From: an uncultured virus (IMG/VR IMGVR_UViG_3300050508_000500)
Taxonomy: Duplodnaviria > Heunggongvirae > Uroviricota > Caudoviricetes
Length of the DNA: 64,000 nucleotides
Strand: one strand, 5' to 3'
IMG/VR virus record: IMGVR_UViG_3300050508_000500
Each line of letters starts with the position of its first letter. Within the stretch, counting starts at the first letter, position 1. Of the stretch, positions 644 through 47,578 are shown piece by piece. Made by a program: the position numbers and the translations under genes. The notes beneath the pieces were generated by a model. That model saw only the letters and a program-made list of their open reading frames with translations. It had not been told where the DNA came from and did not search any database.

Positions 644-659
644 AGGGGCCTCCTCACTG

Positions 660-1227: not shown

Positions 1228-1245
1228 ACTATCCTCTCGCAGGAA

Positions 1246-1698: not shown

Positions 1699-1706
1699 GA
1701 GTTGCT

Positions 1707-6544: not shown

Positions 6545-6558
6545 GGGCGAGGTTGAGG

Positions 6559-7146: not shown

Positions 7147-7148
7147 GC

Positions 7149-7964: not shown

Positions 7965-8075
7965 GGGCTCAACCTCCACGTTGAGAAGGGCTCCACAAGG
8001 AGAACGTACGGCGCCAGTGTGGAGACTGGTGGTCGAGCGGTAGCAACCCCGCTTATAGCCGTACCTCTGAGTATC
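7965..8075 (-). promoter_or_regulatory. -10-like box and structured leader of the second antisense HNH gene
   Basis: Minus strand GATACT, stem GTACGGC/GCCGTAC enclosing AGCGG-ggttgcta-CCGCT and ACCAGT-ctccac-ACTGGC. Confidence 0.55.
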
Positions 8076-8098
8076 CTCTATGCAGCGGAGAAAGTCTA

Positions 8099-8605
8099 GT
8101 GCCCCGTATTCTCTCAGCGGCGCTCGTGCGGGAAAAAAATCAGTTGCAATCGGATCATGTCATTACCTGGCTTTTCGAGCTATTTATACCAGGCGCTCCC
8201 GTCCCGTATCGTTTGGTCAATTACGATCAGGATATTCCGTTTCATGGCATCTGGTACAACCGTGCCAGCGTGGACGTGGACGCCCTCGAAGACGCCACGA
8301 GTCAATCCCTGGTGCGTCTGCGGGGGACGGTAGGCAATGTGGATCAGGCGTTTATCTCGTTACTCGAGCACTACTGGGGGCCGGATAGCCGCTGGGAGGT
8401 GACCATCTGGCCCATTGATACGCAGCAGCCCGACGCGACGCCCTTTGGCACAGGCGAAGTCTTCCAGGTCGTGCAGGTGGCGACGGACTTTCTCACGGCG
8501 GTGGTCGACCTCCAGGCCGAGGGTATAACTCTTTCAGGAACAATACCAAAAAGACGGTTCACGCAGTCCGGGGGCTTTCCGAACATACCTAGAAGGCTTA
8601 GCTAG
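8099..8605 (+). CDS. Tail tip protein (gpL-like)
   Basis: Position before NlpC; C-terminal IPKRRF...FPNIP pattern. Confidence 0.6.
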   Translation: MPRILSAALVREKNQLQSDHVITWLFELFIPGAPVPYRLVNYDQDIPFHGIWYNRASVDVDALEDATSQSLVRLRGTVGNVDQAFISLLEHYWGPDSRWEVTIWPIDTQQPDATPFGTGEVFQVVQVATDFLTAVVDLQAEGITLSGTIPKRRFTQSGGFPNIPRRLS

Positions 8606-8617
8606 AAAAGTTATATT

Positions 8618-9001
8618 ATGACCAGCATTGTCGTTCCTGACATCTTCCCACTCGTGGATGCGATTCTCGGGCGCAGTTATGACGACTATAACTGTTGGAA
8701 CCTCCTGCGGGATCTGTATGGCAAAGGCTGGGGCATTGATCTGGACGCCGACCCGGCAGCGGCGGTCGCCCAAGTCCAAGAGATCTGGTTTCAGGAGGAT
8801 CCCCGTGATCCGCTCACGCTGGTGCAAGTGTGGGACATTTTGATCTTCCGTCCCCGTGGCATGGCGAGTAGTCATGTGGGGATTGTTTGTGATGGTCGGC
8901 AGTTTGTGCACACGAGAAAGAACCTGGGCACATGTATGGAGTTGACGAAGCGTTGGGCGCCCCGCCTGATGCAGATTGCGCGGTTGCGGCGGCTCCTGTA
9001 G
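8618..9001 (+). CDS. NlpC/P60 tail assembly protein (gpK-like)
   Basis: NCWNL catalytic Cys, HVGI His, FVH motif. Confidence 0.85.
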   Translation: MTSIVVPDIFPLVDAILGRSYDDYNCWNLLRDLYGKGWGIDLDADPAAAVAQVQEIWFQEDPRDPLTLVQVWDILIFRPRGMASSHVGIVCDGRQFVHTRKNLGTCMELTKRWAPRLMQIARLRRLL

Positions 9002-12000
9002 CCACCGTTACCTGTATCCTGGTCCTGTCGCCCCTGCGGGCCGCCGATGGACACTTGCGCGTGCAGCGGGAGGTCTTTCCGGCAGGCGATCCGCTCGATG
9101 CCTATCTGCCCGAGGGCGAAGACTTGCGGCATGTCACCGTGAACGGGGCCACGATCCTGCCTGAGCATTACGCGCGCTACGTGCCGAAGGCCGGGGATGA
9201 ACTCTGGCTCTGGCCGACGTGGGGCGAACCGGCGACGTTGATTGGGATTGGTATCTCGTTGCTGGTCGGCCTCGCGGTTTCGGCGGCGTCCCATTTTCTC
9301 TTTCGTCCGAAGCCGCTCCTGCTGCCGCAGCAAAACCAGATGAGCGGCGAGGCCGAACGCACCTTTAGCTTTGAGGGGATTCGCACCGCCGTGGGGCCGG
9401 GCGCCGTCGTCCCGGTCGTGTATGGTCGCCACCGCATTGGCGGGCAACTCCTCCTGGCCACTGTCGATCAAGCCGCCGTCGTCGTGGACGATGGCACCAC
9501 GGCCCACACCGCTACGATTAGTGACGTCACGCACGGGGAACCCTCGGACATTGTGTATGTGACCGCCCCCAATCACGGCTTTGTCACGGGCCAGATTGTG
9601 TTGATCCAGGGCGTTCAAGGCAAAACAGAAGTAAATACCACCTGGGCGATTCACGTGGGCGATGCGGATACGTTTGTCCTCGATAGCTCGTGGGCCGTGG
9701 GTATCACGCATCCTTACCAGGGCGGCGGCACGGCCATGCTCTACAATCAGGGCTCGCGCAACTACCAGGCCATCACCAATCCGCCCACGCTGACGCTCAT
9801 GATCGGGCTCTGTGAAGGCCCGATTGAGGCCATCCTGACGGACACGATTCAGATTAATGGCCAACCCGTGGCCAACTTTCCGGGCGTGCAGGTCTATACC
9901 GGCCTCGGCACGGCCAATCAACCGGCCTTTGCCGAGTTTGGCGGGGCGCGCAACACGTTTGCCGACGGCCGCGACATCGGCGAGAGCCCCCTCACCTATA
10001 CCTCCAACGCCGCGTTGCATGCCTTTGTCCTCAACCTGGCCTGGCCCGAGGGCTTGTATTTTCTCAACGACAAGGGCGAAAAGCACAGCAATAATGCCGT
10101 GCTCCAGTATCGCTATGCGCCGCGCGGCACGGGCAGTTGGTCCGCGTGGACGCCCTTTCAGGTCAATGCCGACCGCACGGCGGCGGTGCGCCTGGGGATC
10201 CGCCGCGAAGGGCTCCCGTATCAAGCCTACGATATTCAGATTCAGCACCTCCGCGCGGGGAATACGGACGAACTCCGGGCACGGTATAAGAGTATCCTGG
10301 AAAGTGTGACCGAATACGTCCCGGATACGTATGCCTATCCGTACACGGCCTGGCTGGGCTTGCGCGCACTGGCTACCGATGCCTTGCGGGGGGCCTTACC
10401 CAATATCACGGTCGAGGTGCGGGGGCGTCAGGTGCGCGTGGGCTCCCTCGCGGTCCCGGAAACGTGGTCCGATAACCCCGCCTGGTGTGTGCTCGATGCG
10501 CTCACCAATCGGCGCTATGGGACGGGGGTGCCAGATAGCGAGGTGGACCTCACCGCCTTTGCCCTCTACGCCGCCTATTGTGACCAGCAAATGCAGGGTG
10601 AGCGGCGCCATACGCTGAATTACGTGCTGGACCGCGAAACGCGGGCGCAGCAATTTTTCTTAGAAACCATGGGCGGATCGCGCGGCATTCTCCTCAAAAC
10701 GGCCGGGCTCTGGACACCACGCCCGACGCGGGACGAAACGCCCACGTGTCTCCTCTCCTGGACCTCCGTGACGAATGTGCGCCTCACCTATATCCAGGAC
10801 GTGGACGCCATTAACGTCGTGGAGGCGCGCTTTGCCAGTGAAGATCAGGACTTTGAGCAAGACGTCATTACCTGGCCGACGCTGGCCAACTGGCCCCCTG
10901 AGGTCCATAAGCACAGCTTTGATTTGCGCGGCGTGACCAAGCCAAGCCGGGTCATGCGCGCCCTCCAGTATGAACTCAATCGGCGGCGCTTTGAAAATGT
11001 GCTCCTGGAGATGGACTGTTCCCTGGAAGCGCTGCCGCTGCAGATGCATGATCTCTTTCGCTTTGCCCATCCCTTGCCGGGCTGGGGCACGTCCGGGCGC
11101 ATCCAGCAAGGCTCCGATGCCGCCATCCTCCACGTCGATGAAGATTGCCTCTTTGAGCAGGACCTCACGTATGTCGTGTACGTGCGTCATGAGGACGATA
11201 CGCTCGAAGCCCGCGAGGTCCTGACCATCACGTTGGGCCCGACGCGCACGCTCCATCTGGCCGCGCAGCTCAGTTTCTTTCCGGTCCCGCGCACCTCCAC
11301 GTTCATGTTTGGGACGCTGGCCACCAATGCCAATACGCGCACGTTCCGGGTGACCAGTCTGCGGCGCAAAAATGATTTGACCGTGAGTCTCGAAGCGCTG
11401 ATTCACAACCCGAGCATCTATGATGAGGCCGTGGCGTCGCCGCTGGGGGTCATTACGACGCTCTTTAACCCGGAAGGCCCGCCGCCGCCGCTCCTCTCGC
11501 TCGTGGCAACCGAAGTGACGCGGATTCAGACGAGCGGCGCGAGTCTGCGCGTCATTAATCTCTCATGGGACGTCGCCCCCTTGAGTAGTGGCTATGCGCT
11601 CTACGGGGGCGCCATGATCTTGCGCCGCGTGCTCCTGGCGACGGGGCAAATGGGGCAGGTGGAGGCCGGGACGATTGGCGCCGGAGCGATTAGTGACCCC
11701 AATGACCCCAACTATAACTATACGCCGCTCACCCAGGTCCGGGGGCATGTGCTGGATTGGGATGACTATACGGCCATTAGTGGCTCGACGTATCAGTACC
11801 GCGTCGTCCCCATCTCGCACCTGGGGGTCCCCAATAATATCGGTGCGCGGGAAGTCGTCATTCATATTGCCGGCCCCACGACGCCCGGCTACTTCCCCGC
11901 GACGCCGCGGAACTTGCGTCTCCAGGGCCAGGCCGTGGGCGTGTCCCTGTGGGAAGGCCGGGACCTGCATGTCGAGTGGGATGCGGTGGCGGATAGCCCG

Positions 12001-14229
12001 CTCTTTAGCGAGACGTTTTTTGTGGCCTTCTACGTGGTGCAAGTCTGGGCGCCGGGGCAACTCTACTTGCTGCGGGCCTATAATGCGGCCCTGGCGCCCG
12101 CAGGCCAGAGCGTGCAGTGGACGTATACCCATCAGCAAAACGAAGAAGACCAGATTCGCAGCGGCTACGCCGGGGCGCGACGCGATCTCCAGGTGATGGT
12201 GTGGGCAGTCACCAATACCGGGCTCTTGTCGCTCGATCCTGCGGTGATCGTCGTGACCAATGCGCCGCCCGACATGAGTAATATCTTACCGGAAGCCCAG
12301 GCGCTCTTTGAGGCGGTGCGGATTGATTGGAAACAATGGATCCGCCCGCGGGATTTTGATCATTTCCTGGTGTTACTCGATGCCGGGAACCCGCCCACGA
12401 TCCCTAATCAGACGGTCGGCATTGATTTCCAGGTGCTGCTCATTCCGGATCTGCTCGCGGGCATCACCTATTATGTCCAGATTATTCCCTATGACTCGTT
12501 TGGCATTGGCATTCCGAGTGCCATTGCCTCCTTTACGCCCGTGGCCCTCACGGCCGACAAACTGGACAATACGCCACCAGCCGTGCCGACCGGCCTCCGC
12601 CTTACGACGGGGACGGATGCCAGTGCGGACGGGACGGTGATGACCTGGGTGCAGGCGCACTGGAACCCCCAGGGAGAAGAGGATCTCAACGGCTTTCAAC
12701 TCGTGTTTCGGGTGGCATCACCCAACATCCCGACCGTCGTGCAGCCGGGACGGTTTGATAGTACCTACAAAATTTTTGTCCCCGGCAATGTGACGGTCTT
12801 TGCCAAAATTGCCGCGATTGATCGCCTGGCGAATCTCAGTGCGTTTACCGATCCCGAGGTGTCCATTACGACGGGCCGCGATGGGACGCCACCGAGCGCC
12901 GCCGCGAACCTCTATGCCGTCGGCACCGTGCAAAAGATTGCGCTGCTCTGGACGCCGCCGGGCGATCTGGATTACGACTACTGTGAGGTCTGGACGTCGG
13001 GGCTCAACGATCGCAGCACGGCTGGGGTGATTGGGCAAGGCAGCTACAGCTTTGAACATACGGGGTTTGTCGCCAATCAGCGGGCCTATTATTGGATTCG
13101 TCCAGTAGATACCTCGGGCAATATTGGGCCGTTTCACCCCGTCTCGGCCACGGCAGGGGTGACGGCCGTCGCTGGGCAACTGGACGACACCTTCATTAGC
13201 TCCCTGGTGGCGACCAAAATCCTTACCGGGAAGCTCACGGCGCTGGTCAGTATTGGCGTGGCGGATCGCGTCTATATTGATGGCACCAATAGTCTGATGG
13301 TCATCCGCGATCAGTACCTGGGCAATAACCGCGTCCTCTTGGGGAAGCTCGGGCCGCTCTCGGATCAGTACGGCATTCAGATTTTTAATAGTGGCGGCGG
13401 CCTCATGTTTGACGCGAATGAGAGCGGTGTCACGGCAGCCGGAATTAAAACCGGGGTCATTAATGCGGGGCATCTGCGCACCGATACGGCGGTCATTACG
13501 GGCGTGGCTCAAATCCAAGATGCGCTGATCCGCAATGCGCATATTCTGGACCTGGCTGCTGACAAAATCATTGCGGGCACGATTAACGCGCAGGTGTTCC
13601 TGGGGGGGCCGGTAGCCGGATCCATTGCCCCGATTGTCCTTGACGGCGTCAATCGCCAGATCATTCTCCGGGACGATAACGGCACGATTCGCGTCTGGAT
13701 TGGGCGGATTGCGGCAGGGCCGACCAACTATAGCATCCTGATTTACCACGCGGATGGCTCCCTCATGTGGAGCCCGGAGACCGGGGCGCAAACGCCCGGC
13801 ATTGCCCCGTCCGCGGTCGTCACGGAGAAGATCTACGTCAACGCCGTCACCAACAGCGTGTCGTATACGGACATTGTGGGGCTCAGTGTGACGATCAGTG
13901 AGACGGCGCTGGCGTCGCTTGTGTTTGATTTGAACGAGGGCGATCAAGTCTGGGTGACCCTCACCGCCACCGTGAGCGTGGCCACGCTCGACGACGCGTG
14001 TGAGCTGCGCGTTCGGGAAAATAGCGCGGCTTCGGGGTCGCCAGAACTCGCGTATGGCCAAACGAATAACCCGGGGCGCAGTACGATGGTGTGCCAGGGC
14101 GTCTATACCGCCCCCAGTGGCTTTAGCGGGACGAAAGCCTTTGTGGGCACGTTTAAGAATGGAGGCGTGGCCGGGAATTCCATCGGCGCCGATCATATCA
14201 AGATGGTCGGCTTTCGGAGGCAGCGCTAG
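8932..14229 (+). CDS. Tail tip / host specificity protein (gpI+gpJ-like, FnIII repeats); start uncertain
   Basis: 1765 aa; VPVVYGRHRIGGQ, GLCEGPI, WSDNPAWC motifs; FnIII-like DNTPPAVPTGL...YYWIRPVDTSGN. Confidence 0.9.
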   Translation: MYGVDEALGAPPDADCAVAAAPVATVTCILVLSPLRAADGHLRVQREVFPAGDPLDAYLPEGEDLRHVTVNGATILPEHYARYVPKAGDELWLWPTWGEPATLIGIGISLLVGLAVSAASHFLFRPKPLLLPQQNQMSGEAERTFSFEGIRTAVGPGAVVPVVYGRHRIGGQLLLATVDQAAVVVDDGTTAHTATISDVTHGEPSDIVYVTAPNHGFVTGQIVLIQGVQGKTEVNTTWAIHVGDADTFVLDSSWAVGITHPYQGGGTAMLYNQGSRNYQAITNPPTLTLMIGLCEGPIEAILTDTIQINGQPVANFPGVQVYTGLGTANQPAFAEFGGARNTFADGRDIGESPLTYTSNAALHAFVLNLAWPEGLYFLNDKGEKHSNNAVLQYRYAPRGTGSWSAWTPFQVNADRTAAVRLGIRREGLPYQAYDIQIQHLRAGNTDELRARYKSILESVTEYVPDTYAYPYTAWLGLRALATDALRGALPNITVEVRGRQVRVGSLAVPETWSDNPAWCVLDALTNRRYGTGVPDSEVDLTAFALYAAYCDQQMQGERRHTLNYVLDRETRAQQFFLETMGGSRGILLKTAGLWTPRPTRDETPTCLLSWTSVTNVRLTYIQDVDAINVVEARFASEDQDFEQDVITWPTLANWPPEVHKHSFDLRGVTKPSRVMRALQYELNRRRFENVLLEMDCSLEALPLQMHDLFRFAHPLPGWGTSGRIQQGSDAAILHVDEDCLFEQDLTYVVYVRHEDDTLEAREVLTITLGPTRTLHLAAQLSFFPVPRTSTFMFGTLATNANTRTFRVTSLRRKNDLTVSLEALIHNPSIYDEAVASPLGVITTLFNPEGPPPPLLSLVATEVTRIQTSGASLRVINLSWDVAPLSSGYALYGGAMILRRVLLATGQMGQVEAGTIGAGAISDPNDPNYNYTPLTQVRGHVLDWDDYTAISGSTYQYRVVPISHLGVPNNIGAREVVIHIAGPTTPGYFPATPRNLRLQGQAVGVSLWEGRDLHVEWDAVADSPLFSETFFVAFYVVQVWAPGQLYLLRAYNAALAPAGQSVQWTYTHQQNEEDQIRSGYAGARRDLQVMVWAVTNTGLLSLDPAVIVVTNAPPDMSNILPEAQALFEAVRIDWKQWIRPRDFDHFLVLLDAGNPPTIPNQTVGIDFQVLLIPDLLAGITYYVQIIPYDSFGIGIPSAIASFTPVALTADKLDNTPPAVPTGLRLTTGTDASADGTVMTWVQAHWNPQGEEDLNGFQLVFRVASPNIPTVVQPGRFDSTYKIFVPGNVTVFAKIAAIDRLANLSAFTDPEVSITTGRDGTPPSAAANLYAVGTVQKIALLWTPPGDLDYDYCEVWTSGLNDRSTAGVIGQGSYSFEHTGFVANQRAYYWIRPVDTSGNIGPFHPVSATAGVTAVAGQLDDTFISSLVATKILTGKLTALVSIGVADRVYIDGTNSLMVIRDQYLGNNRVLLGKLGPLSDQYGIQIFNSGGGLMFDANESGVTAAGIKTGVINAGHLRTDTAVITGVAQIQDALIRNAHILDLAADKIIAGTINAQVFLGGPVAGSIAPIVLDGVNRQIILRDDNGTIRVWIGRIAAGPTNYSILIYHADGSLMWSPETGAQTPGIAPSAVVTEKIYVNAVTNSVSYTDIVGLSVTISETALASLVFDLNEGDQVWVTLTATVSVATLDDACELRVRENSAASGSPELAYGQTNNPGRSTMVCQGVYTAPSGFSGTKAFVGTFKNGGVAGNSIGADHIKMVGFRRQR

Positions 14230-14232
14230 CGT

Positions 14233-14559
14233 ATGGCCTATCTGGTCAAATACCGCACGGATGACGGGACCATTGTCGGGCTCTGGGAAAGTAATGCGCG
14301 GGTCTTTCTGGAAGCCCAGCGCGGCGCGGACGAGCCCGGCTATGGGTATCTCATCCGCGACGAGACGGCGCCGTCCCGCATGCAGGAGCAGTGGCGCGTG
14401 CTGGGGGACCAGGTGGTCCAGGACGTCCGCCCGCGTACCCTCCAGCCGCAGGGTCCCTCTCTCACTGGGACAGGCGTGACGCTGACGACGCTGGCGGAGC
14501 AGGTGGCGGCACTGACGACGCGGGTGGAGGCCCTCGAAGCCTTGAAAGTACAGTCTTAA
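14233..14559 (+). CDS. Hypothetical tail-associated protein with C-terminal coiled coil
   Basis: Tightly coupled to the gpJ-like gene; ends LTTRVEALEAL. Confidence 0.55.
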   Translation: MAYLVKYRTDDGTIVGLWESNARVFLEAQRGADEPGYGYLIRDETAPSRMQEQWRVLGDQVVQDVRPRTLQPQGPSLTGTGVTLTTLAEQVAALTTRVEALEALKVQS

Positions 14560-14595
14560 TATGACACAACATAGTTTGTAAGAAGAGAGTTTAAA

Positions 14596-16089
14596 GTGGC
14601 TCAACTCGGCGCGGGAATCGGGACTGGCTACCCAGGAGTCATCGACACACGGCAGACGTTTATCAATGCGCCGCCGATGGCTCCCGATAGTGCCAGTCGC
14701 CTGGATTCGGAAGTCATCAACGATGCCTTGGCGGCCATGGTCGCGGTCCAGACGGTCCTCGGCTCCAATCCGCAAGGCACGTTTGGCTCGCTCGCCGCGC
14801 GGCTCCAGCAGTTTCTCCCTGGGGGTGGCGAGAGCCCGCTCTTTTTTACCTTCAATGCCACCACGAGCGTCACCATTGCGGGGACCACGCATCGCCTCGG
14901 CACGCCCGCACCGCTTTTCCAGGCGTACAATGCGGAAACCCCGCGCCAGGTGATTCAGCCCAATACCGTAGCCATTGATACGCTCACCTATGATGCCACG
15001 TTTACCTTCCTCACGCCGCAAACGGGGATCATCAGTCTCGCGGCGCCGAGTCCGCAATATACGGTGTCCTTTACCAATCAGACGACCGTGAGTATTCCCG
15101 GCAGTACGCACGCCCTGGGGACTGCAGACCTCCTCGTACGCGTCTATACCGTGAGCGGCAGCCAGAATATCCTGACGCAGGTGCCCGTCAGTATTGCCCC
15201 GGCGACGGCGGATGTAACAGTCACTTTTGTCACGCCTGCGAGTGGCACGATCATTGTCAGTGCGGCCGGCCCACGGTTTGTGGCCACCTTTGCCAGTGCC
15301 ACGACGGTGAGCGTGCCCGGCGCCACGCATGGGCTCGGGACGTCCGCGTTGCTCTTTGCTGTCTATGACAACGCGAGTCCGCGCCAGAGCCTGCTGCCCA
15401 ACAGCATTACAGTAGATCCGAATTCGCATGACGTGGTCATGACCTTCGTAACCCCCACGAGCGGGCGGCTGATCATCGTCAAAGCCACCGCCATTACCGG
15501 GACCGATTTTGAAATCCGGGACGCGGGCGTCACGAATGCCTCAGCCGTGCGCGTCTTAAGTGACGACGGTGCACTCCTCCTCCAGATGGGCAGCGGCGAG
15601 GCCGTGGAAACCCTGAACAAAACCGGGACGGTCGTGCAGCGGACCGATAATAGCGGCAATTTGATGATTACCGGCACAGCGACCAAACCGGGTGGCGGCA
15701 GTTGGCTCAGTCCCTCAGACGAACGGCTCAAAAAGGATATCGAGCCGTTTGTGGAGGGGCTTGAGGTGCTCCTGGCGCTCGATCCGATCTGGTTTCGCTA
15801 TAACGGCCAGGGCGGCATCCCGATTACGCGCCAGCGGCACATCGGCCTGCGGGCGCAAGTCGTGCAGGCTGTGGCGCCCTATATGGTGACGAGTCGCCGG
15901 GGCGTGCTGACGCCTAACAGCGAGGAGACGGACCTCCTGGCGCTCGATACCGAGGCCCTGCCGTACCTGCTCCTCAATGCGCTCAAAACGGTGTATCAGC
16001 TCCTGGAGACGGTGCGCCAGGAGAAAGAGCAATTGGCCGAGCGTGTGACGGTGCTCGAAGCCCTCGCCCAGAAAGGAGGTCTTGCGTGA
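14596..16089 (+). CDS. Tail fibre with C-terminal intramolecular chaperone (peptidase S74)
   Basis: Three about 70-aa repeats (TxVxxxGxTHxLGT...TFxTPxxG); SDERLKKDI...HIGLRAQ and terminal coiled coil. Confidence 0.85.
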   Translation: MAQLGAGIGTGYPGVIDTRQTFINAPPMAPDSASRLDSEVINDALAAMVAVQTVLGSNPQGTFGSLAARLQQFLPGGGESPLFFTFNATTSVTIAGTTHRLGTPAPLFQAYNAETPRQVIQPNTVAIDTLTYDATFTFLTPQTGIISLAAPSPQYTVSFTNQTTVSIPGSTHALGTADLLVRVYTVSGSQNILTQVPVSIAPATADVTVTFVTPASGTIIVSAAGPRFVATFASATTVSVPGATHGLGTSALLFAVYDNASPRQSLLPNSITVDPNSHDVVMTFVTPTSGRLIIVKATAITGTDFEIRDAGVTNASAVRVLSDDGALLLQMGSGEAVETLNKTGTVVQRTDNSGNLMITGTATKPGGGSWLSPSDERLKKDIEPFVEGLEVLLALDPIWFRYNGQGGIPITRQRHIGLRAQVVQAVAPYMVTSRRGVLTPNSEETDLLALDTEALPYLLLNALKTVYQLLETVRQEKEQLAERVTVLEALAQKGGLA

Positions 16090-16559
16090 GACGCCTGGGG
16101 ATCCCCCTGCTCCTGATGGCCCTGTGGAGCACGCCCGCCTGGGCACAAGGGCAGTTTTTTAACTCGAACTTGACCGTAGCAGGCACGATCAACGCCGGGA
16201 CGGCCACGGGGAGCGGCAATGCCTATGTGCTGACGCTCAACCCGCCGATTGGGGCCTATGTGACCAATCAATGCTTTATGTTTCAGGCCAACCATACCGT
16301 GACGGGCGCGGCGACGCTCAATATCAATGCCCGGGGCGTGAAGGCGCTGCGGAAGTTTGTGTCGACGGTGTCGACGGACCTGGCCGCGAATGACATTGCG
16401 AATGGACAGATCATCACGGTCTGCTATGACGGCACCAACATGCAACTGACGGGCGGCGGGCCGGGTGGCGCCGGCGGGGGGGGCGGGGGCGGCGGCGTCC
16501 CGGCCTTTGTGACCGCCACGACGGCCCTCAGTGCCCATGCCAACGCGGGAGGACTCTAG
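16086..16559 (+). CDS. Signal-peptide protein with tail-fibre-like domain
   Basis: MRRLGIPLLLMALWSTPAWA; NAYVLTLNP...TGAATLNIN...YDGTNMQL resembles fibre modules. Confidence 0.65.
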   Translation: MRRLGIPLLLMALWSTPAWAQGQFFNSNLTVAGTINAGTATGSGNAYVLTLNPPIGAYVTNQCFMFQANHTVTGAATLNINARGVKALRKFVSTVSTDLAANDIANGQIITVCYDGTNMQLTGGGPGGAGGGGGGGGVPAFVTATTALSAHANAGGL

Positions 16560-16560
16560 G

Positions 16561-17058
16561 ATGCGCGGACGACGAGTGATGGGCTTCCTGGCCCTGCTAG
16601 GGGCCTTCCTGGCGGGGTCAAGCTGGGCGGCAGTCACGCCCAATAGTCCGGTCTTCATGCAGACGCCCACGGTGGGCAAGGTGCAATTTCTCCAGGGCAC
16701 CGACACGGCAGGGACCTATAAAACGCTCTATGCCGCGGGCACGAACGGGGCGCGCTGTAATGCGATGTGGCTCACCACGGATGACGGGACGACGACGCAT
16801 CTCGTGACGGTGCAAATCGTGAGCGGCGGCATCCGGTTCGGCGGGGTGGCGGCTCAGACGCTCGTGAGTCAAGGCTTTGCCAGTGGGACACCCGCCCTCA
16901 ACCTGTTGGCGCCGACGCTCTGGCCGGGCTTGCCGCTCGATAGCGACGGGAATCCCTATATCCAACTGGCCAGCGGCGATACGCTCCAGGCCACCTATAC
17001 GATCGCGCTGACGGCGGCCACCCGGATTAATCTTATTGTAAGCTGCGGTGAGTTTTAG
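16561..17058 (+). CDS. Secreted beta-rich hypothetical protein
   Basis: MRGRRVMGFLALLGAFLAGSSWA signal peptide. Confidence 0.65.
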   Translation: MRGRRVMGFLALLGAFLAGSSWAAVTPNSPVFMQTPTVGKVQFLQGTDTAGTYKTLYAAGTNGARCNAMWLTTDDGTTTHLVTVQIVSGGIRFGGVAAQTLVSQGFASGTPALNLLAPTLWPGLPLDSDGNPYIQLASGDTLQATYTIALTAATRINLIVSCGEF

Positions 17059-17083
17059 GCCGTATTGTCCTATGGGAGTGTTC

Positions 17084-18019
17084 ATGATGCGACGATGCCT
17101 GCTCTGTCTGCTCTTCCTGCTCACTAGCGGCACGTTCGCCCTCAGCGAGGCGCAGCAACTGGGCGGTCGGATGCATAGTAGCAACCTGCGCCTGAACAAG
17201 CTGCGGGCGGGCACGCTCACTAATTGCGGCAGCAACAACTTTGTGAGCGGCTGGCGCCCCGATGGCACGACGATTTGTACCGCATTCGCCCTCGATATTA
17301 GCAATGTGGTCATGCTCACAGCCCCGCAAAAGGTCACGAATAAGCAAATCGTTCCCAAGGCGGTCGCGTATACGCCGGCGGGGACGCCGTTGTCCATTAC
17401 GCCCAATCTGGATACGACCGATGTCGTGGTGGTCGATGGCATTACCGGGGACCTCACGATCAACGCGCCCATCGGCACGGGCGGCAATCCCACCGAGGAG
17501 CAAGAGGTCTCGTTTCGGTTTAAGTCGACCACGCCCCGGGCGCTCACGTGGCACGCCATCTATACCACCGAAAACGGCATTCCGCTCCCGAGTGCCACCA
17601 CCGGAGACGGCACCACGACGGATCGCGTGAAAGTGCTCTACAATGCGGTCTCCGCCAAGTATGGGGCCGTGGCCACCACGCGGGGCATTGGGCGCGGCAT
17701 TACCACGAGTACAGGCACGGCCACCAGCCTGAACTGCAATGCGCAGATCGCCGCCCTGTGCCGGCACACCATGACCGGGGCGGCGGGGACGCTCACCATT
17801 ACCGTGAGTGGCACGGTGACGGATGGCACGCTGACGCGTATTAGTCTCAAATGCACCAACGCGCAGACCTTGACGCTGAGCACAGCAGGCTTTTTGCCGT
17901 CGCCCAATATTCCTCTCGCCATGACCTGTCCTGCCACGGCTGCCGGGATGGGCTGGTTTGATATTGGTTTGTCCTATTCGCAAGCGGACGGCAAACATCA
18001 GGTGATTGCTACGAACTGA
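17084..18019 (+). CDS. Secreted Thr/Gly-rich fibre-like protein
   Basis: MMRRCLLCLLFLLTSGTFALSEA signal peptide; LTINAPIGT...RALTW fibre-like motif. Confidence 0.6.
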   Translation: MMRRCLLCLLFLLTSGTFALSEAQQLGGRMHSSNLRLNKLRAGTLTNCGSNNFVSGWRPDGTTICTAFALDISNVVMLTAPQKVTNKQIVPKAVAYTPAGTPLSITPNLDTTDVVVVDGITGDLTINAPIGTGGNPTEEQEVSFRFKSTTPRALTWHAIYTTENGIPLPSATTGDGTTTDRVKVLYNAVSAKYGAVATTRGIGRGITTSTGTATSLNCNAQIAALCRHTMTGAAGTLTITVSGTVTDGTLTRISLKCTNAQTLTLSTAGFLPSPNIPLAMTCPATAAGMGWFDIGLSYSQADGKHQVIATN

Positions 18020-18031
18020 TGGAGTGTATGC

Positions 18032-18667
18032 ATGGCGACTCAAAGAACTCTTTTTAGCTCAGGATGGTGCATAACGCTGGTGTGCGGGCTGCTCCTCTTA
18101 GTGCCTTGGGTAGTCTGGGGCGGCGCAGCAACGACCCTCACCGAGGCGCAGTATCAGCAACTGAAGACCCAAATTACGGTGACGGACGTGAACGAGAATC
18201 AAGCCGATGTCGCCGCCGGGCGGGATCAGGTCATTGCGGACAGGTACAACCAACCAGTGACGCCCACGTTCCAGGTCTACAAAACGGCCGTGACGCGCAA
18301 GACGATTCTTTTTGAGAAGTCTCCTGCCAATACGAGCTTTATCTTTGAGGGCAATGGCTACTTGACCTTGACTGTTCAGGAGTTGATGACTTTTCATGAC
18401 TTTTTTGATGGCCCGAGCCTGGTGATGGACGCGAGTTTGCCCAATGTCCACAGTGCCCTCGATGCGATTTTCAAACTCCCGGGCAATGCCACGAATAATC
18501 GCAACCACATTAAACAGCAGTCGTCACGCGCCGTCACCCGCGCAGAAAAAATCTATGTCACCGGAACCAATGCCGGCACGACTGCGGATCCAGGCTTTCT
18601 TGTCTGGGAAGGCTTCTTGACGCAGCACGATATCCGGTACGCGCTCCGAGGAGGGCCACTGCCATGA
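18032..18667 (+). CDS. Secreted hypothetical protein
   Basis: Hydrophobic N-terminus LVCGLLLLVPWVVWG; overlaps next start. Confidence 0.6.
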   Translation: MATQRTLFSSGWCITLVCGLLLLVPWVVWGGAATTLTEAQYQQLKTQITVTDVNENQADVAAGRDQVIADRYNQPVTPTFQVYKTAVTRKTILFEKSPANTSFIFEGNGYLTLTVQELMTFHDFFDGPSLVMDASLPNVHSALDAIFKLPGNATNNRNHIKQQSSRAVTRAEKIYVTGTNAGTTADPGFLVWEGFLTQHDIRYALRGGPLP

Positions 18668-19164
18668 GGACACGTCTTGCTTCCCTCCTTTTCCTGAGTC
18701 TTGTGCTCTGGGTGTCACCGCTCTGGGCCGCGTCCCCCTTCGTGTGGCTCCGGGGCACGATCGACACCTGGATTACCACGAGTACCGGATTGGCGAGTGG
18801 CTCCAGCGTGCTTTCTGGCAACATTACGCTTGCAAGTGCCAACTACACCCGCGCAGATTGTGAGCTGAGTACTGGGGCCTGGAGTGGGACTGTGGCAGCC
18901 AATACGGCGGTCGTGGTGTGGCTCATTCGGCAAGCAGACGGCACCAATTTTGAAGACGGTACTACTGGCGCTGATCCAGCCAGGATCCCTGATTTCATCT
19001 TTCCCCTGCGCGCGGTTAGCACGGCCCAGCGCATTGTGATTCCGAGCATTGAACTCCCGCGGGGGGTGTTCAAGGCTCTCCTCAAAAATGACGGCACGGG
19101 CGTGACCCTCCAGGGCGCCCCATGGACCTTACGATGCACCCCGTACGTGTTACAAATACCCTAG
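18664..19164 (+). CDS. Secreted beta-sandwich hypothetical protein
   Basis: MRTRLASLLFLSLVLWVSPLWA signal peptide; DGTNFEDG motif. Confidence 0.6.
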   Translation: MRTRLASLLFLSLVLWVSPLWAASPFVWLRGTIDTWITTSTGLASGSSVLSGNITLASANYTRADCELSTGAWSGTVAANTAVVVWLIRQADGTNFEDGTTGADPARIPDFIFPLRAVSTAQRIVIPSIELPRGVFKALLKNDGTGVTLQGAPWTLRCTPYVLQIP

Positions 19165-20009
19165 CGCTGCTCCTGCTGCTAACGCTGCTGAGTACGCCAG
19201 CGCTCGCGCAACCCCGGCTGGACCGGAATGCGCCGACCGCCCAGGGGCTCCTCGCTTGGTGGCGCGTGGTCGCAGGCGTGAGCGGGGGACGCACCTGGTA
19301 CGATCTTACCGGGCGCTTCCCGCTAGCCGTGACCAATATCGACACGGCGGGGAGTAGTGGCGCGGGGGCGACGACGCGGCCTGGCGGGCAGGGCGAAATG
19401 CGCTTCGACGGAACGAATGATTATGCCACCCATCCGGTCACTGCGCAGTTGTGGCCCCCCGCCGTCAGTATCCTCTTGTGGATGAAGCGGACCGCCACCG
19501 GCAACGACTATCAAGGCCTCGTGACGGGGGGGAATAATAGTGGATTCCGCGATATTATCGTGCGATCCAGTGGAGGCATGAACGTGTCGTTTGTCACGTC
19601 GACGTCCAGTTACCTGCAACAAGACAATGCCAATCCTGGCGCCATTCCTGTGGGGGTCTGGACGCATCTGGCCTATACCTACAGTAGTGCCACGGGCTTG
19701 CAAGGGTATACCAACTGTCTCCCCACCACGTTTAATGGGGCCTCGGGGACGATGTACCCGGTGACCACGCTGCCGACCGTGGTGGGCACGTTAGACGTGG
19801 CAGCGCCGTCGCTCTATTTTCCCGGCGCCATGGATGACATTAAACTCTACAATCGGGCGTTATCTGGGCAGGAAGTGTGTCAGGTCATGCGGGACTCCCA
19901 GCGGGGTGAGCCGAAGTTACTCCCCCCGTCGCTGCTCGTGGGGGTCGTGCCGCCGCTGGTCGTGGGCGGCCCCAAGAGCCGCTTTTTCCCCTTTTTCCAG
20001 GCCCCCTGA
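19134..20009 (+). CDS. Secreted LamG / ConA-like lectin domain protein
   Basis: Signal LALLLLLTLLSTPALA; FDGTNDY, WTHLAYTY, GAMDDIKLYNRALS. Confidence 0.85.
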   Translation: MHPVRVTNTLALLLLLTLLSTPALAQPRLDRNAPTAQGLLAWWRVVAGVSGGRTWYDLTGRFPLAVTNIDTAGSSGAGATTRPGGQGEMRFDGTNDYATHPVTAQLWPPAVSILLWMKRTATGNDYQGLVTGGNNSGFRDIIVRSSGGMNVSFVTSTSSYLQQDNANPGAIPVGVWTHLAYTYSSATGLQGYTNCLPTTFNGASGTMYPVTTLPTVVGTLDVAAPSLYFPGAMDDIKLYNRALSGQEVCQVMRDSQRGEPKLLPPSLLVGVVPPLVVGGPKSRFFPFFQAP

Positions 20010-20019
20010 AAGGATCCGT

Positions 20020-22479
20020 ATGGTGTGGTTTGTCCTTCTCCTGAGTCTGGTGTGGGTAGCGCCCGCCTGGAGTGCCACGTATTTTGTCTCGACCGCCTCT
20101 GGCGCGTCCGATGGGAACCCCTGCGCGGATAACAATATCGGTGCCCCCAAGCGCAACATTGCTGGGGCAAATGGGGGGATCTCCTGTTTGTTCCCTGGCG
20201 ACACGCTGTTCATCCGTGGGGGGACCTATAATGAACAGATTCGGCCCCCCGGAGGGTCCTGGATGCGCAGCGGCACAGGGGAGAATAGCCGCGTTACCAT
20301 TGCCGGCTATCAGCAAGAGACGGTCATTCTTGCGCCGTTTAGTGGGAACGCGGTCCTCTCCTTAGAGCAGACGGGGAATTTTTCCTGGATGACCTTTGAG
20401 CGTCTGATTTTTGACGGGAACAATACCGGCGTGGTCGCCACCATTGCGGGGGACACCCATCATTTACGGTTTCGGAATGTGGAACTGAAAAATTCCCATG
20501 TCGATGGCAACTCCCATGGCTTCGGAGGCTCAGGAGGGCATCACCATGAATTTCTTGGTGTCTACATCCACCATGTCACAGGCTACGGGGCCTATTTTTC
20601 TGGCGCGGATTCCCTCTGGGATCATGTGACCATTGTGGATAATGGCGGGTATGGCCTGCATTTCTACGATAAAGCGTCCCACATTGATAACACCGTCGTC
20701 AGGAATAGTATTATTGCCCGCAACGGGTTTAACAACCAGTATGGCGGGGGTGGGATTGTCCTCTTCCATGGGGATAACCAGCAAGTCTACAACAATCTCA
20801 TTTACGGCAATTTTGAAGGGGTCGGGATTCGCAGTAGTTGTAACAGTTGCCGCGTCTACAATAATACCATCTATAACAATCAATACCGGGCGATCCAGAT
20901 TCTGGGCGAAACCTTTGATTATGAATATCCCCCTGGCAGTGGCATTTGGCGTGAGATCCGTCCGCCCACCAACGTCTATTTGCAAAACAACATCTTCGAC
21001 AACAATGGCAATACGATTGACCATCAAAATGGCACCATCGCGGCCCAGGACCATAACCTCTGCCAAGGTGCCAATCAAAACCTCTGTGATATGACCGGCA
21101 ACCCGGCTTTTGAGGATGCCGGGGGGGACAATTTTAAATTGACCCAGGGCAGTCAGGCCCGCAATCGCATTCCCACCAGTGCGGGCGCCTGTACCCTGGC
21201 CATTGACTTTGAAGGCACGGCTCGGCCCCAAACCCCGATTGGCGGCTCGGCAACCCCGTGTGACATTGGGGCGTATGAGTACAAGGAAGGCAATTCCCTA
21301 ACCCCACCGAACGGCCAACCTATTTATGTGCGAGGCAGCGTGGGGAACGATACGAATACGTGCTTTGCGGCGGAAAGTCCCACGACCGCCAAACAGCACT
21401 TACTGGGGCCAGACGGGGCCCTCAATTGCATGCAGACGCCTGGCAAGGTGCTCTACATCGAAGGCAATGGGAGTGTGTATAGCGAGGAAATTGATATCGC
21501 CAATACCAATCTCGTGGGGGGGGATGGTCCCTCGTTTACGACCGCGACGCGCCTGGAAGGCTATGGCTCGCCGCTGCCTGCCCTCAAGGCCCCCGCGGGG
21601 GGCGGGCTCAACCTGTATGTACGTGGCAGCAATGCGAAGTATCTGATTTTTAAGAAACTGGTCATTGACGGCAACAACGACACCTATAATACTGTGGCGA
21701 TAGCCGCTCCAGCCCACCATATTCGATTTGAAGAAGTGGAGGTCAAGAACACGCTCGGTCGCGGGTTTGAGGGGATCCATCTGTCCAATGTCAACAATAT
21801 CGAGTTGGTCGACGTCTTTATCCATGACGTCCGCAGAGACGGTATCAAAATAGAAGGCACCATTGATGGGTTTCTGTGCCAGCGGTGTCATCTCTTTAGC
21901 GCCCAGGCGAGTGGTCTGTACGTGGTGAATAATGGGACGAAAGCCAATCTGACCCTCCGGGAAACGGAAATCCGCAATAATAGCGGCGATGGGGTGAACG
22001 CGGAAACGGGCACCGGTCTGCTGCTGCAAAACCTGCTCCTCCACTCTAACGGGGGCCGGGGCGTGTGGATTCAGAGTGGAACCTCGGGCACCAGCCTCTT
22101 GAACACGACGGTGTACGGGAATACGGGCATAGGGGTGCAGTGTGATCCGCCCGCCTCCAATACCGAGATTGTGAACAACATCGTCTATGGCAACTCGGGG
22201 GGCAACATCGTCAATAATTGCAGCGCCGTGGCCACCTCGAACGTCACGATCAACCCCAACTTTCGTGGCCCGCCGGGCGATTTGAAGCTCAACGAACCGT
22301 CCCCAGCGATTGACCAGGGCCAGACGCTCCCCAGTATCCTCACGGATTATGAAGGCCAGCCGCGGCAGCAAGGCCAGCAAGACGTCGGCGCCTATGAGAC
22401 GATTGCGACGACGGGGACGCCTGGCGACACGGTGACTGAGCAGCCGTGCAACCTGCTCGCGGCCAGTATGTACTTTTAG
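20020..22479 (+). CDS. Secreted double right-handed beta-helix protein (pectin-lyase-like fold)
   Basis: Signal MVWFVLLLSLVWVAPAWS; PGDTLFIRGGTY; NNLIYGN/NNTIYNN ladders; two D(I/V)GAYE ends. Confidence 0.85.
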   Translation: MVWFVLLLSLVWVAPAWSATYFVSTASGASDGNPCADNNIGAPKRNIAGANGGISCLFPGDTLFIRGGTYNEQIRPPGGSWMRSGTGENSRVTIAGYQQETVILAPFSGNAVLSLEQTGNFSWMTFERLIFDGNNTGVVATIAGDTHHLRFRNVELKNSHVDGNSHGFGGSGGHHHEFLGVYIHHVTGYGAYFSGADSLWDHVTIVDNGGYGLHFYDKASHIDNTVVRNSIIARNGFNNQYGGGGIVLFHGDNQQVYNNLIYGNFEGVGIRSSCNSCRVYNNTIYNNQYRAIQILGETFDYEYPPGSGIWREIRPPTNVYLQNNIFDNNGNTIDHQNGTIAAQDHNLCQGANQNLCDMTGNPAFEDAGGDNFKLTQGSQARNRIPTSAGACTLAIDFEGTARPQTPIGGSATPCDIGAYEYKEGNSLTPPNGQPIYVRGSVGNDTNTCFAAESPTTAKQHLLGPDGALNCMQTPGKVLYIEGNGSVYSEEIDIANTNLVGGDGPSFTTATRLEGYGSPLPALKAPAGGGLNLYVRGSNAKYLIFKKLVIDGNNDTYNTVAIAAPAHHIRFEEVEVKNTLGRGFEGIHLSNVNNIELVDVFIHDVRRDGIKIEGTIDGFLCQRCHLFSAQASGLYVVNNGTKANLTLRETEIRNNSGDGVNAETGTGLLLQNLLLHSNGGRGVWIQSGTSGTSLLNTTVYGNTGIGVQCDPPASNTEIVNNIVYGNSGGNIVNNCSAVATSNVTINPNFRGPPGDLKLNEPSPAIDQGQTLPSILTDYEGQPRQQGQQDVGAYETIATTGTPGDTVTEQPCNLLAASMYF

Positions 22480-22489
22480 GGAGAGAGCG

Positions 22490-24352
22490 ATGCGCTGCTG
22501 GATCGTCCTGGTCGTCCTCTGCCTGCCGCGCCTGCTGGCGGCGCATTGTCTCCCCCAGCCGCCCGCGACGCTCTTCCCCGTGGTCGTGAACCAATTTGGG
22601 TATACACCCACGGCCCAGAAAGTGGGGGTGGTCCGCGATCCTCAGACGGGCTTTGATGCCGCTACCACCTATACCCCGCCTGCGAGTCTCCAGGTCCGCC
22701 GGCGCAGCGATACCGGGCTGGTGCTGAGCGTCACCCCCACGGCCTGGAACGGGGGCGCCACGCACGCGCAAAGTGGCGACAAGGTGTGGTGGGTGGATTT
22801 CTCGGGTCTGACGACGCCTGGCGTGTATTACCTTTTCGATCCCAGCGCCAACGCCCGCAGTGACTTTTTTGCCGTGAGTGACACGGCCTATACCACGGTA
22901 CTCCGGCAAGTCCTCCGCATGTTCTACTATCAGCGGAGTGGTTTTGCGAAGGGTGGACAATACACGGATGCGAAGTGGGCGGACGGCGCCGCATTTCTGG
23001 GCGCCGGGCAAGATACGCAGGCGCGCAGCGTGATCGATCAGGGCAACGCGGGGACGGCCAGAGACCTGCAGGGCGGCTGGTTTGATGCGGGTGATTTTAA
23101 TAAATACAGCATCTGGGGCACCTGGGCGCTCACCGACTTGCTCATGGCCTATCTCCAGTATCCCACCGTGTGGACAGATGATCTGAATATCCCCGAATCG
23201 GGCAATGGTATCCCCGACCTCTTAGACGAGGCCAAGTGGGAACTCGACTGGCTGCGCCGCATGCAGACGGCCACGGGGAATGGCTCGGTCTTAAGCAAAC
23301 TCGCCGTGACCGATCACCAGCGCGCCAGTCCGCCCAGCACCGACACCACGCCCCGGTACTGGGGCGCCGCCTCCACCGCCAGTACCGCCTGTACGGCGTC
23401 GGTCTTTGCGCTGGGCGCCATTGCTTTTGCGGCGGCAGGTCAGGCCGATTATGCCACGACGCTCACCACGGCGGCAGAGAGTGCCTGGACGTGGGCGCAG
23501 ACGAATAACGCCGTAGGCTATGCCAACACGGGCTTTAATAATGCCAACCCCGAACCTAGTACCTACGGACGGGCACTCTGTCAGTTGCAGGCTGCCGCCT
23601 TTCTCTATGCCAGGACGGGCACGGGAGCCTACAAGACCTACGTCGAGAACAATTACACGACGCTTAATGCGGTCAATTCGACCTATTGGTTTGGCTTTGC
23701 GCCGGATGTCTACGCCCAGCAAGCCCTCCTCTACTATGCGGTCCAGCCCGGCGTGACCGCAGGCGTGAAGACGGCGATTCAGAATAGCAAAACTACGGGG
23801 ATTGGCAGCGCGGAATTTTACCCGGCTGTCACCGCCCAGACGGACGCCTATCGGGCGTACATGAAGGATGCGGACTATCAGTGGGGGTCCAATCAGAACA
23901 AATCGCACATCGGGAACATCTTTCTGGATCAAATCCGCTATAGCCTCGATACGCCCAATGCTACCAACTACAAAAATGCCGCAGCGGGCTATGTGCACTA
24001 TATCCTCGGGGTGAATCCGCACAGTATCGTCTTCTTGACAAACCTCTACCAGTATGGCTGCGCGCGCTGTTCCAATGAGACCTTCCACGAATGGTTCTCG
24101 GATGGCACAGATTGGGATAATGCTCTCACCTCGCCCAAGGGACCAGCGCCGGGATATCTGGTGGGCGGTCCTAATCCCAACTTTACGGGCACCGGCCTCC
24201 CGACGCCGCCCGCAGGTGGGCAGCCGATTTTAAAGGCATTCGCTGATTTCAATACCAGTACTCCCCAGAATAGCTGGGAATTTACTGAAAGTGGAATATA
24301 TTATCAAGCTGCATTTCTACATCTACTAGCTCATTTTGTAGCAAACCCCTAG
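22490..24352 (+). CDS. Glycoside hydrolase family 9 with N-terminal Ig-like domain, secreted
   Basis: VNQFGY N-domain; DLQGGWFDAGDFNKY; PDLLDEAKWELDWL; C-terminal NSWEFTESGIYYQA acid motif. Confidence 0.9.
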   Translation: MRCWIVLVVLCLPRLLAAHCLPQPPATLFPVVVNQFGYTPTAQKVGVVRDPQTGFDAATTYTPPASLQVRRRSDTGLVLSVTPTAWNGGATHAQSGDKVWWVDFSGLTTPGVYYLFDPSANARSDFFAVSDTAYTTVLRQVLRMFYYQRSGFAKGGQYTDAKWADGAAFLGAGQDTQARSVIDQGNAGTARDLQGGWFDAGDFNKYSIWGTWALTDLLMAYLQYPTVWTDDLNIPESGNGIPDLLDEAKWELDWLRRMQTATGNGSVLSKLAVTDHQRASPPSTDTTPRYWGAASTASTACTASVFALGAIAFAAAGQADYATTLTTAAESAWTWAQTNNAVGYANTGFNNANPEPSTYGRALCQLQAAAFLYARTGTGAYKTYVENNYTTLNAVNSTYWFGFAPDVYAQQALLYYAVQPGVTAGVKTAIQNSKTTGIGSAEFYPAVTAQTDAYRAYMKDADYQWGSNQNKSHIGNIFLDQIRYSLDTPNATNYKNAAAGYVHYILGVNPHSIVFLTNLYQYGCARCSNETFHEWFSDGTDWDNALTSPKGPAPGYLVGGPNPNFTGTGLPTPPAGGQPILKAFADFNTSTPQNSWEFTESGIYYQAAFLHLLAHFVANP

Positions 24353-47575: not shown

Positions 47576-47578
47576 ACG

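Follow-up and report, generated by a model that had tools for sequence, protein, structure and literature searches.

Why a tailed phage should carry signal peptides on a row of genes directly behind its tail fibre is the question raised by a 64,000-nucleotide stretch of an uncultured Caudoviricetes virus (IMG/VR record IMGVR_UViG_3300050508_000500; hereafter the window). According to the textbook, tailed-phage assembly is wholly cytoplasmic, and structural proteins normally have no signal peptide. Positions 16086-24352 of the window are filled by eight plus-strand genes, sp1-sp8 (the cassette), whose predicted products begin with hydrophobic leaders. The initial annotation of this DNA took them either for virion decorations that mature in the periplasm or for a secreted adhesion and matrix-degrading set, and both readings are still live. 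The best explanation overall, to which we give a probability of about 0.5, would be a distal tail/host-recognition operon whose products are Sec pre-proteins that dock on the virion at lysis; host-contact gear then probably folds outside the cytoplasm.

Eight consecutive genes with Sec-type leaders

Gene calls confirmed all eight genes of the cassette, with starts picked by Shine-Dalgarno-like ribosome-binding sites (RBSs). The preceding gene, at 14596..16089 on the plus strand, encodes an S74 tail fibre of 497 amino acids (aa) with Peptidase_S74 at residues 374-431 (E 4.6e-12) and matches to PHROG tail fibre families; its N-terminus is not hydrophobic and has no leader. The GTG start of sp1 (16086-16559, 157 aa), with AAGGAGG upstream, overlaps the stop of this fibre gene (GTGA). 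It is followed by sp2 (16561-17058, 165 aa; ATG start with GGGAGGA upstream, in an open reading frame (ORF) listed from 16531), sp3 (17087-18019, or from 17084; 310 aa), sp4 (18032-18667, 211 aa), sp5 (18664-19164, 166 aa), the start of which is overlapped by the sp4 stop, sp6 (19134-20009, or from 19122; 291 aa), sp7 (20020-22479, 819 aa; the listed ORF begins at 19834, and the RBS-backed ATG is at 20020), and sp8 (22490-24352, 620 aa). From sp1 to sp8, the distances to the preceding gene are -4, +1, +28, +12, -4, -31, +10, and +10 bases, and with gaps between -31 and +28 bases the earlier description of a tightly coupled continuation of the tail-fibre operon stands. A consensus scan of the cassette yielded no convincing internal promoter (14 promoter-like sites vs 8.2 +/- 3.1 in shuffles) and no convincing internal terminator (17 terminator-like sites vs 16.0 +/- 4.1). 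The close packing and the lack of a clear internal promoter or terminator were counted in favor of late co-expression with the S74 fibre, which they would fit.

By inspection, all eight products start with leaders of the Sec/signal-peptidase-I type, in which an n-region precedes an uncharged hydrophobic core and the core is followed by a small-x-small site. The n-regions are short and mostly basic, sp7 being without a basic one. The cuts predicted from sp1 to sp8 (marked by hyphens) are AWA-QG, SWA-AV, ALS-EA, VWG-GA, LWA-AS, ALA-QP, AWS-AT, and LLA-AH, giving leaders of ~20, 23, ~20, ~30, 22, 25, 18, and ~17-19 aa, respectively, and none of the eight has a lipobox, [LVI][ASTVI][GAS]C, at the leader end. 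Genes were scored with a crude rule of our own at a cut-off of 4.0, which is not SignalP or another trained predictor. The crude gene caller found six genes of the cassette and all were flagged, five at 4.0 or above and sp7 at 3.9; sp4 and sp6 were missed by this caller, and their leaders were judged by eye. Outside the cassette, 10 of the 65 called genes scored at least 4.0, mostly membrane parts of the type IV secretion block described below, and none of the other called tail genes within 1-16085 reached this value. With a background of 15%, simple arithmetic puts the chance of eight leaders in a row at ~3e-7.

The same cassette is carried by the related contigs L003, L004/L005, and L006, and 19 ortholog pairs were compared from three related phage contigs, L003, L005, and L006. 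The leader was kept in 19/19 pairs, with an identity of 199/434 (46%) in the leader vs 571/760 (75%) in the next 40 mature residues, and there was a sharp switch at the predicted cut. The sp4 orthologs have three unrelated canonical leaders in front of the same mature start, GAATT/GAATV. Drifting of the leader and resumption of conservation at the cut make up the signature expected of a cleaved leader. The initial annotation had named true starts downstream of the hydrophobic stretches as what would speak against its reading; such starts are unlikely, because conserved coding sequence fills the stretch from the leader to the next in-frame start. Its call of a Sec-like signal peptide on every plus-strand gene from 16086 to 24352 was borne out in 8 of 8 genes, with RBS-backed starts and conservation in orthologs and wider families, and judging from these sequence patterns, export of sp1-sp8 is very likely.

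The mature N-termini are often predicted to begin with Gln, in the window in sp1 (A-QGQ) and sp6 (A-QPR) and elsewhere in loci L016-L018, L020, and L022-L025. A start of the form A-QF(L/I)(M/S)PG(E/N)R was also seen, and QF..PG.R recurs in four proteins of three phages. These recurrent Gln starts suggest a possible shared N-terminal motif, or pyroglutamate formation.

Fibre, lectin, and enzyme-like modules behind the leaders

In the product of sp1, which matches phrog_28171 (E 2.1e-7), the leader is followed by a fibre module, and a poly-Gly linker joins this module to a tail of 20 aa. The module is also found in longer fibre-type proteins, with a leader in 9 of 38, and many leaderless relatives of the sp1 type begin with a common ~55-aa N-terminal domain. 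When searched by tblastn against 50,697 phage records, sp1 hit only four weak records, one of them a phiOH2 tail fibre, and sp2 and sp3 had no match. The sp3 protein consists of a leader (ALS-EAQQ) and two tail-fibre-tip-type beta domains at residues 70-310; its family has 713 representatives at E<=1e-3, often with the sp3 part C-terminal in proteins of up to 1858 aa, and 69 among the best 150 of these 713 are leader-like. The AlphaFold2 (AF2) model of sp3, with a predicted local distance difference test (pLDDT) score of 82, matched PDB 6o38 (E 3e-6) and gave 170 BFVD matches at E<=1e-3, among which are phage proteins of the tail fibre, minor tail, and collagen-repeat kinds. We therefore regard sp1 and sp3 as predicted tail-fibre modules.

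The sp2 protein is a leader followed by a 142-aa mature jelly roll (AF2 pLDDT 82). Its family comprises 388 homologs, none with a Pfam domain, and its Atlas neighbours are 92-100% viral. Among the best 120 of the 388 homologs, 115 are leader-like, and the other five have starts that are truncated, miscalled, or borderline. Reading 20 members by eye showed in each a hydrophobic leader that ends at a small-residue site and is directly followed by a conserved (A/G/S/P)(V/T)TxNS, with A-AVT in 15 of the 20; C66 and C162 are invariant in the family. The structural neighbours of sp2 are a phage KHP40 cement protein (Z 9.3, VIA search) and, at Z 8.3 each, a phage 7-7-1 fibre domain and a virus turret jelly roll. 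In the wide fold search, these were the only three chains at Z >= 8, with the rest in the noise band, and Foldseek returned only weak jelly-roll matches (TM 0.32-0.44), so that no functional family could be named. Neither sp2 and sp3 nor sp4 and sp5 matched Pfam, PHROGs, or NCBIfam. The sp4 protein (VVWG-GAATT) falls in unnamed clusters with Atlas neighbours that are 88-100% viral, and no family was named for sp5, the leader of which ends LWA-ASP.

The remaining three proteins have recognisable lectin or enzyme folds. The sp6 leader (ALA-QPR) is followed by a laminin G (LamG)/concanavalin-like lectin domain (Laminin_G_3, PF13385, E 3.1e-19), and the C-terminal part matches the virion structural protein family phrog_8510 (E 6.5e-11). 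The sp7 leader (AWS-ATYF) is followed by two right-handed beta-helix modules, each closed by a choice-of-anchor Q domain (Beta_helix PF13229, E 2e-28; NosD PF05048; NF041518 in two stretches, E 3.7e-17); there was no PDB sequence match for sp7, and by its folds the protein would be depolymerase-like. The modules of sp1, sp3, sp6, and sp7 are all common to known phage fibres or tailspikes. Behind its leader, sp8 has a CelD_N Ig-like domain (PF02927, 46.4 bits) and a glycoside hydrolase family 9 (GH9) catalytic domain (PF00759, E 1.7e-60, 206 bits against a cut-off of 27.7, profile positions 1-443 of 444), and its alignment with the solved GH9 3x17 (E 5.4e-40) runs over the full length. The catalytic motifs of GH9 are the DAGD aspartates and a C-terminal glutamate. 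In sp8, DAGD is kept and aligned with 3x17 (GGWFDAGDFNKY), a Glu aligns within the C-terminal NE..ID.NA, and the HHR-type motif is changed to FHEW; sp8 is a putative GH9 glucanase. The LamG, beta-helix, and GH9 calls of the initial annotation were reproduced, as Laminin_G_3 in sp6, Beta_helix and NosD in sp7, and CelD_N and Glyco_hydro_9 in sp8.

The closest named homologs of sp8 (~54%) are Verrucomicrobiota and Blastocatellia GH9s of ~750 aa, several of which have leaders, and by the strict score 77 among the best 120 homologs are leader-like. An ancestry from bacterial secreted enzymes is suggested for sp8, and probably holds for sp7 as well. Several of the closest sp8 homologs read A-HC, A-GC, or A-DC at the cut; sp8 was considered as a lipoprotein and rejected, as it has no lipobox and only one of the first 26 homologs listed fits even a looser pattern.

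The mature parts of sp1-sp8 have 2, 2, 6, 0, 2, 2, 15, and 5 Cys, respectively, and there are 0 Cys in the tape measure (1364 aa), the tail tube, g108, and the S74 fibre. Paired Cys, which had been proposed for these proteins, are therefore found in sp1, sp2, sp3, sp5, and sp6, but not in sp4, which has none, or in sp7 and sp8, which have odd counts.

Clusters of leader-bearing genes around sp2 in other phages

Scanned with a profile, IMG/VR yielded homologs of sp2 at 18 loci. In 10 distant non-redundant viral loci, for which the gene calls were crude, 20 of the 36 genes within two genes of the sp2 homolog were leader-like, vs 14 of 168 elsewhere (Fisher p 1.2e-9). The tails of these distant phages differ, being of the SU10-adaptor type, gene transfer agent (GTA)-like (DUF2460/BR0599/Rcc01698), lambda-J-like, and others, and sp2 is 43-62% identical across phages with unrelated tails. 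Only sp2 is common to the distant loci and the cassette of the window; its neighbours there include one leader-bearing protein with Peptidase_S74, one with a phage tail collar domain, and one beta-helix. From this distribution, sp2 appears to be the conserved core of such cassettes. Locus L018 has two sp2 paralogs, at 967-1383 and 4384-4869, and directly after the second, at 4872-6290, lies the gene for a leader-bearing 472-aa protein with a Peptidase_S74 chaperone domain, a predicted exported S74 fibre.

Longer records carry the same kind of cluster. G005 is a complete 61.5-kb genome with terminal repeats. Of its 77 called genes, eight are leader-like when read from the first start, and five of these stand consecutively around sp2. 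A tyrosine integrase match was present in G004 and G006, and there was none in G005. A pattern-based scan for sp2 in 185,579 species genomes found a single locus, in a metagenome-assembled genome (MAG), where a gpJ-like remnant is followed by leader-bearing genes. The nearest matches of the terminase (TerL, <=40% identity) and of VirB4 (<=32%) are too distant for placing a host; because of this, and because the sole species-genome locus is a MAG remnant, the host was not placed.

Divergence of the cassette among related phages

Among the relatives of the window phage, gpJ is ~89% and the S74 fibre 85-93% identical, whereas identity is 53-87% for sp3, 35-45% for sp6, and 30-42% for sp7. Because sp3, sp6, and sp7 diverge far more than gpJ and the S74 fibre, these exported genes look like the fast-evolving, receptor-binding protein (RBP)- or host-range-like genes of the phage group. 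The sp7 ortholog in L003 and L005 has 1569-1595 aa (vs 819 aa in the window). In L006, at 11505-12143, sp5 is replaced by an unrelated leader-bearing protein of 212 aa, and in L005 an additional low-GC3 frame of 247 aa is located between sp4 and sp5 (11525-12268). Taken together, the cassette appears to be modular. The GC content of sp7 is 0.557 (0.545 in the 2-kb bin 20001-22000), compared to 0.59-0.65 for its neighbours, which would fit recent module exchange. Megablast searches of the cassette DNA against GenBank phages and PLSDB plasmids gave no match.

Genome context and the transfer genes

Family profiles and the ORF map describe the window as a lambda-like long-tailed phage, with a tail tube (826-1227), a tape measure protein with an SLT domain (2450-6544), gpJ (8932-14229, 1765 aa), a terminase at 60534 (TerL-like by tblastn), and a portal (DUF4055) at 62033. 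The gpJ frame (window 8932-9500) begins inside the NlpC/P60 (gpK-like) gene, and its first ~180 residues match the tail assembly families phrog_32 and phrog_4554, which points either to a miscalled J start or to fusion of J with a gpI-like part.

The window also has a type IV secretion/relaxase block, called by Pfam at 27385-41340, with a TraF-type S26 peptidase, a type IV coupling protein (T4CP), VirB4, VirB6, VirB8, VirB9, VirB10, and a MobA/MobL relaxase, which is a near-complete conjugation set; the closest plasmid VirB4/TrbE is ~32% identical. By this gene content, the window is a candidate conjugative phage-plasmid. After the relaxase comes bh9 (41364..42410, + strand), a leader-bearing beta-helix protein (PF13229, E 1.1e-24; leader AWG-ATYY) that is paralogous to the N-terminal half of sp7 (338 aa aligned at 38% identity, E 2e-52). 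It is followed on the minus strand, at 42456..43562, by a beta-helix-type repeat protein with a leader-like N-terminus (score 5.55) and no Pfam or NCBIfam match.

The initial annotation had suggested that the secreted set could also aid mating. This was not supported: when the eight transfer proteins of the window were searched by tblastn against G005, G004, and G001, with the window as positive control, there was no match, and Pfam found no transfer family in seven distant 15-20-kb sp2 loci. The G001 contig ends at window base 20009 and G002 ends ~1.2 kb after sp8, so neither is informative on the transfer genes. Further, it is the tail fibre gene to which the cassette is coupled; between the cassette and the transfer genes lie a convergent KilA-N gene and a helix-turn-helix (HTH) gene. 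Because sp2 clusters occur in phages without transfer genes, the cassette appears to be independent of the type IV secretion system.

The KilA-N gene (24349-25500, minus strand) converges on sp8 with a 4-base overlap, and the strongest hairpin of the region (25184-25218, plus strand; a 15-pair stem and a T run) is located inside or just upstream of it. The IMG/VR record G001 reads as window 20009..1, then 23.8 kb absent from the window, then window 64000..43419. Because G001 joins window parts through this extra DNA, the molecule would be at least ~87.8 kb and circular or circularly permuted. The two breaks of the G001 contig, one at the sp6/sp7 junction and one within the gene at 42456-43631, possibly bracket a population-variable block with sp7, sp8, and the transfer genes.

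A possible route from periplasm to virion, and its alternatives

If the favored explanation is correct, the eight genes are the distal part of the phage tail/host-recognition operon, and their leaders would carry the products across the inner membrane late in infection. Folding would then take place in the oxidising periplasm, where most of the eight could form disulfides, and contact with the cytoplasm-built virions would be made only after rupture of the envelope by holin and endolysin. At that point the fibre and lectin proteins may attach to the tail tip and serve there as accessory receptor-binding proteins, and sp7 and sp8 may be carried along or work unattached on the host polysaccharide coat. 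Virion attachment is suggested by the operon position, the fibre modules, the RBP-like divergence, the exported S74 fibre predicted in a relative, and a cultured precedent; that at least some of sp1-sp8 become virion parts falls a little short of an even chance. As a generalisation, we tentatively propose a two-compartment route in a large uncultured group of tailed phages, in which heads and tails would be made in the cytoplasm and Sec-exported, disulfide-bonded fibres, lectins, and enzymes, gathered around the sp2 jelly roll, would be joined to the tail tip at lysis.

Several observations weigh against docking on the virion. No virion-attachment or adaptor domain was recognised in sp1-sp8, the sp1-type leader occupies the place of the ~55-aa N-terminal domain of leaderless relatives, and sp7 and sp8 begin directly with catalytic-type folds. 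The conservation of sp2 across unrelated tails seems to fit a host-envelope or exported partner better than a docking site on the tail, and sp8 looks like a captured bacterial secreted GH9 that kept its leader. A shared disulfide theme is weakened by the 0 Cys of sp4 and the odd counts of sp7 and sp8, and the leader calls rest on our own rule, inspection, and conservation. Between sp1-sp8 and the leader-bearing proteins of the cultured precedent, phage phi18:3 (see below), no similarity in sequence was detected, and virion proteomes can be contaminated by envelope material that co-purifies. Nor was a way found by which the proteins could cross the outer membrane before lysis.

Much of this would be expected if the proteins were exported but never became virion parts, acting instead as free periplasmic or released late factors: sp7 and sp8 would clear the polysaccharide coat or matrix for progeny escape, and the fibre and lectin proteins would mask receptor glycans on the dying cell and its debris, limiting re-adsorption and superinfection. 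T5 Llp and influenza neuraminidase do a comparable job by other means. Free factors would account for the missing attachment domain, for a leader in place of the N-terminal domain of many leaderless relatives, for sp2 being kept across unrelated tail types, and for the leaders on several of the cellular GH9s closest to sp8; the choice-of-anchor Q domains of sp7 (the family name is that of NF041518) are, we presume, marks of secreted or surface proteins. Published cases of exported phage products point the same way, signal peptides being reported on 5% of prophage carbohydrate-active enzymes (CAZymes; 3261/64,678) in one survey (PMC13507307), and Porphyromonas gingivalis phage genes with signal peptides being interpreted by their authors as envelope modifiers (PMC10367356). 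However, the hypervariable genes are sp3, sp6, and sp7, not gpJ or the S74 fibre, and if the former acted off the virion, the phage's own receptor-binding parts would be oddly invariant. A leader also stands on an S74-chaperone fibre, the hallmark of trimeric virion fibres, in one distant locus, and the leader-bearing phi18:3 proteins are annotated as found in virions. We consider free factors unlikely, though they are the most substantial of the alternatives.

An improbable alternative is that the proteins are surface adhesins and matrix enzymes of the carrier cell, shown during a plasmid-like prophage state and aiding cell contact, including mating through the phage's own type IV secretion system. 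It would give a role to the TraF, T4CP, VirB4/6/8/9/10, and MobA genes and to the two further leader-bearing beta-helix-type proteins that flank the transfer block, and it has a model in the phage-fibre-like mosaic adhesive trimer (MAT) fibres of Bdellovibrio, which have a signal peptide and a conserved N-terminal domain (PMC10769870); some relatives likewise fuse a leader, an sp1-type N-terminal domain, and variable C-terminal parts. It is disfavored by the sp2 clusters of G005, which is complete and lacks a tyrosine integrase match, and of G004, neither of which matches the eight transfer proteins, by the seven Pfam-scanned distant loci without a transfer family, by a cassette that is coupled to the tail fibre gene and has the KilA-N and HTH genes between itself and the transfer genes, and by an sp2 family that was met at one place in the 185,579 species genomes and has viral Atlas neighbours. 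Least credible of all is that the hydrophobic N-termini are unused, the true starts lying downstream or the leaders being relics on captured genes. Such a reading could draw on the lack of a basic n-region in sp7, the long sp4 leader (~30 aa), and the untrained rule; RBS-like sites precede the leader-including starts, however, residues between leader and next in-frame start are conserved, and leaders, though altered in sequence, persist in each of the 19 ortholog pairs and in 115 among the 120 best sp2 homologs.

If receptor-binding parts are routinely exported and oxidatively folded, this departs from the wholly cytoplasmic assembly of the textbook, and part of assembly would take place at lysis. 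Host-range determinants would then be mislabelled by annotation pipelines that throw out genes with leaders as non-structural or "moron" genes, and host-range prediction and engineering of such phages would have to weigh host Sec, signal peptidase, and Dsb. Should the proteins be free factors instead, phages would be making a new and widespread class of agents for receptor masking or matrix clearing. In both cases, the sp2 family, with 388 matches, no Pfam domain, and virus-only neighbours, is a handy marker for such cassettes.

Comparison with known systems

Classical tailspikes, fibres, and free depolymerases of the P22 gp9 type resemble the cassette in their modules (beta-helix, fibre tips, LamG, glycoside hydrolase), genomic position, and fast divergence. 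The classical proteins fold in the cytoplasm, bear no leader, and bind the particle through an N-terminal domain. Among prophage CAZymes, signal peptides are rare, at only 5% (PMC13507307). T5 Llp, phi80/N15 Cor, and lambda Lom are exported, encoded beside tail-tip or RBP genes, and act on the host envelope or receptor. These are, however, single small lipoproteins or outer-membrane proteins without fibre or enzyme modules, and sp1-sp8 have no lipobox. A phage receptor-binding protein made as a Sec pre-protein is represented by g3p of filamentous phages (PMC8310372), but inoviruses assemble at the membrane by extrusion, and the phage in the window is tailed (portal, terminase, tape measure, gpJ). 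A full-text literature search found no paper describing Sec-exported fibres of tailed phages as a mechanism.

The MAT fibres of Bdellovibrio bacteriovorus are tail-fibre-like proteins with a signal peptide, a conserved N-terminal domain of ~130 aa, variable tips, and sometimes an S74 chaperone (PMC10769870). They are alike in plan to fused relatives of sp1 and sp3, which also have a leader, an N-domain, and a variable C-terminal part, and a leader and an S74 domain occur together in L018 as well. The tip domain of the MAT protein Bd2133 matches sp2 weakly in structure (Z 6.9, within the noise band). MAT genes, however, are chromosomal genes of a predator that displays the fibres on its own surface, whereas the genes of the cassette are part of a phage tail operon and split into eight small units.

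A case from a cultured tailed phage is Cellulophaga phage phi18:3 (NC_021794), in which three consecutive genes, gp085, gp086, and gp087, encode products with leader-like N-termini (...GYS-QV, ...VSA-QT, and ...LNA-QT). Its host belongs to the Bacteroidota, the three proteins have 0, 1, and 3 Cys and so show no disulfide theme, and the record is silent on leaders. The GenBank record annotates all three as structural proteins of the virion or as tail proteins, 'based on experimental MS/MS proteomics analysis' (tandem mass spectrometry), and by analogy they may serve as a cultured precedent for leader-bearing proteins in virions.

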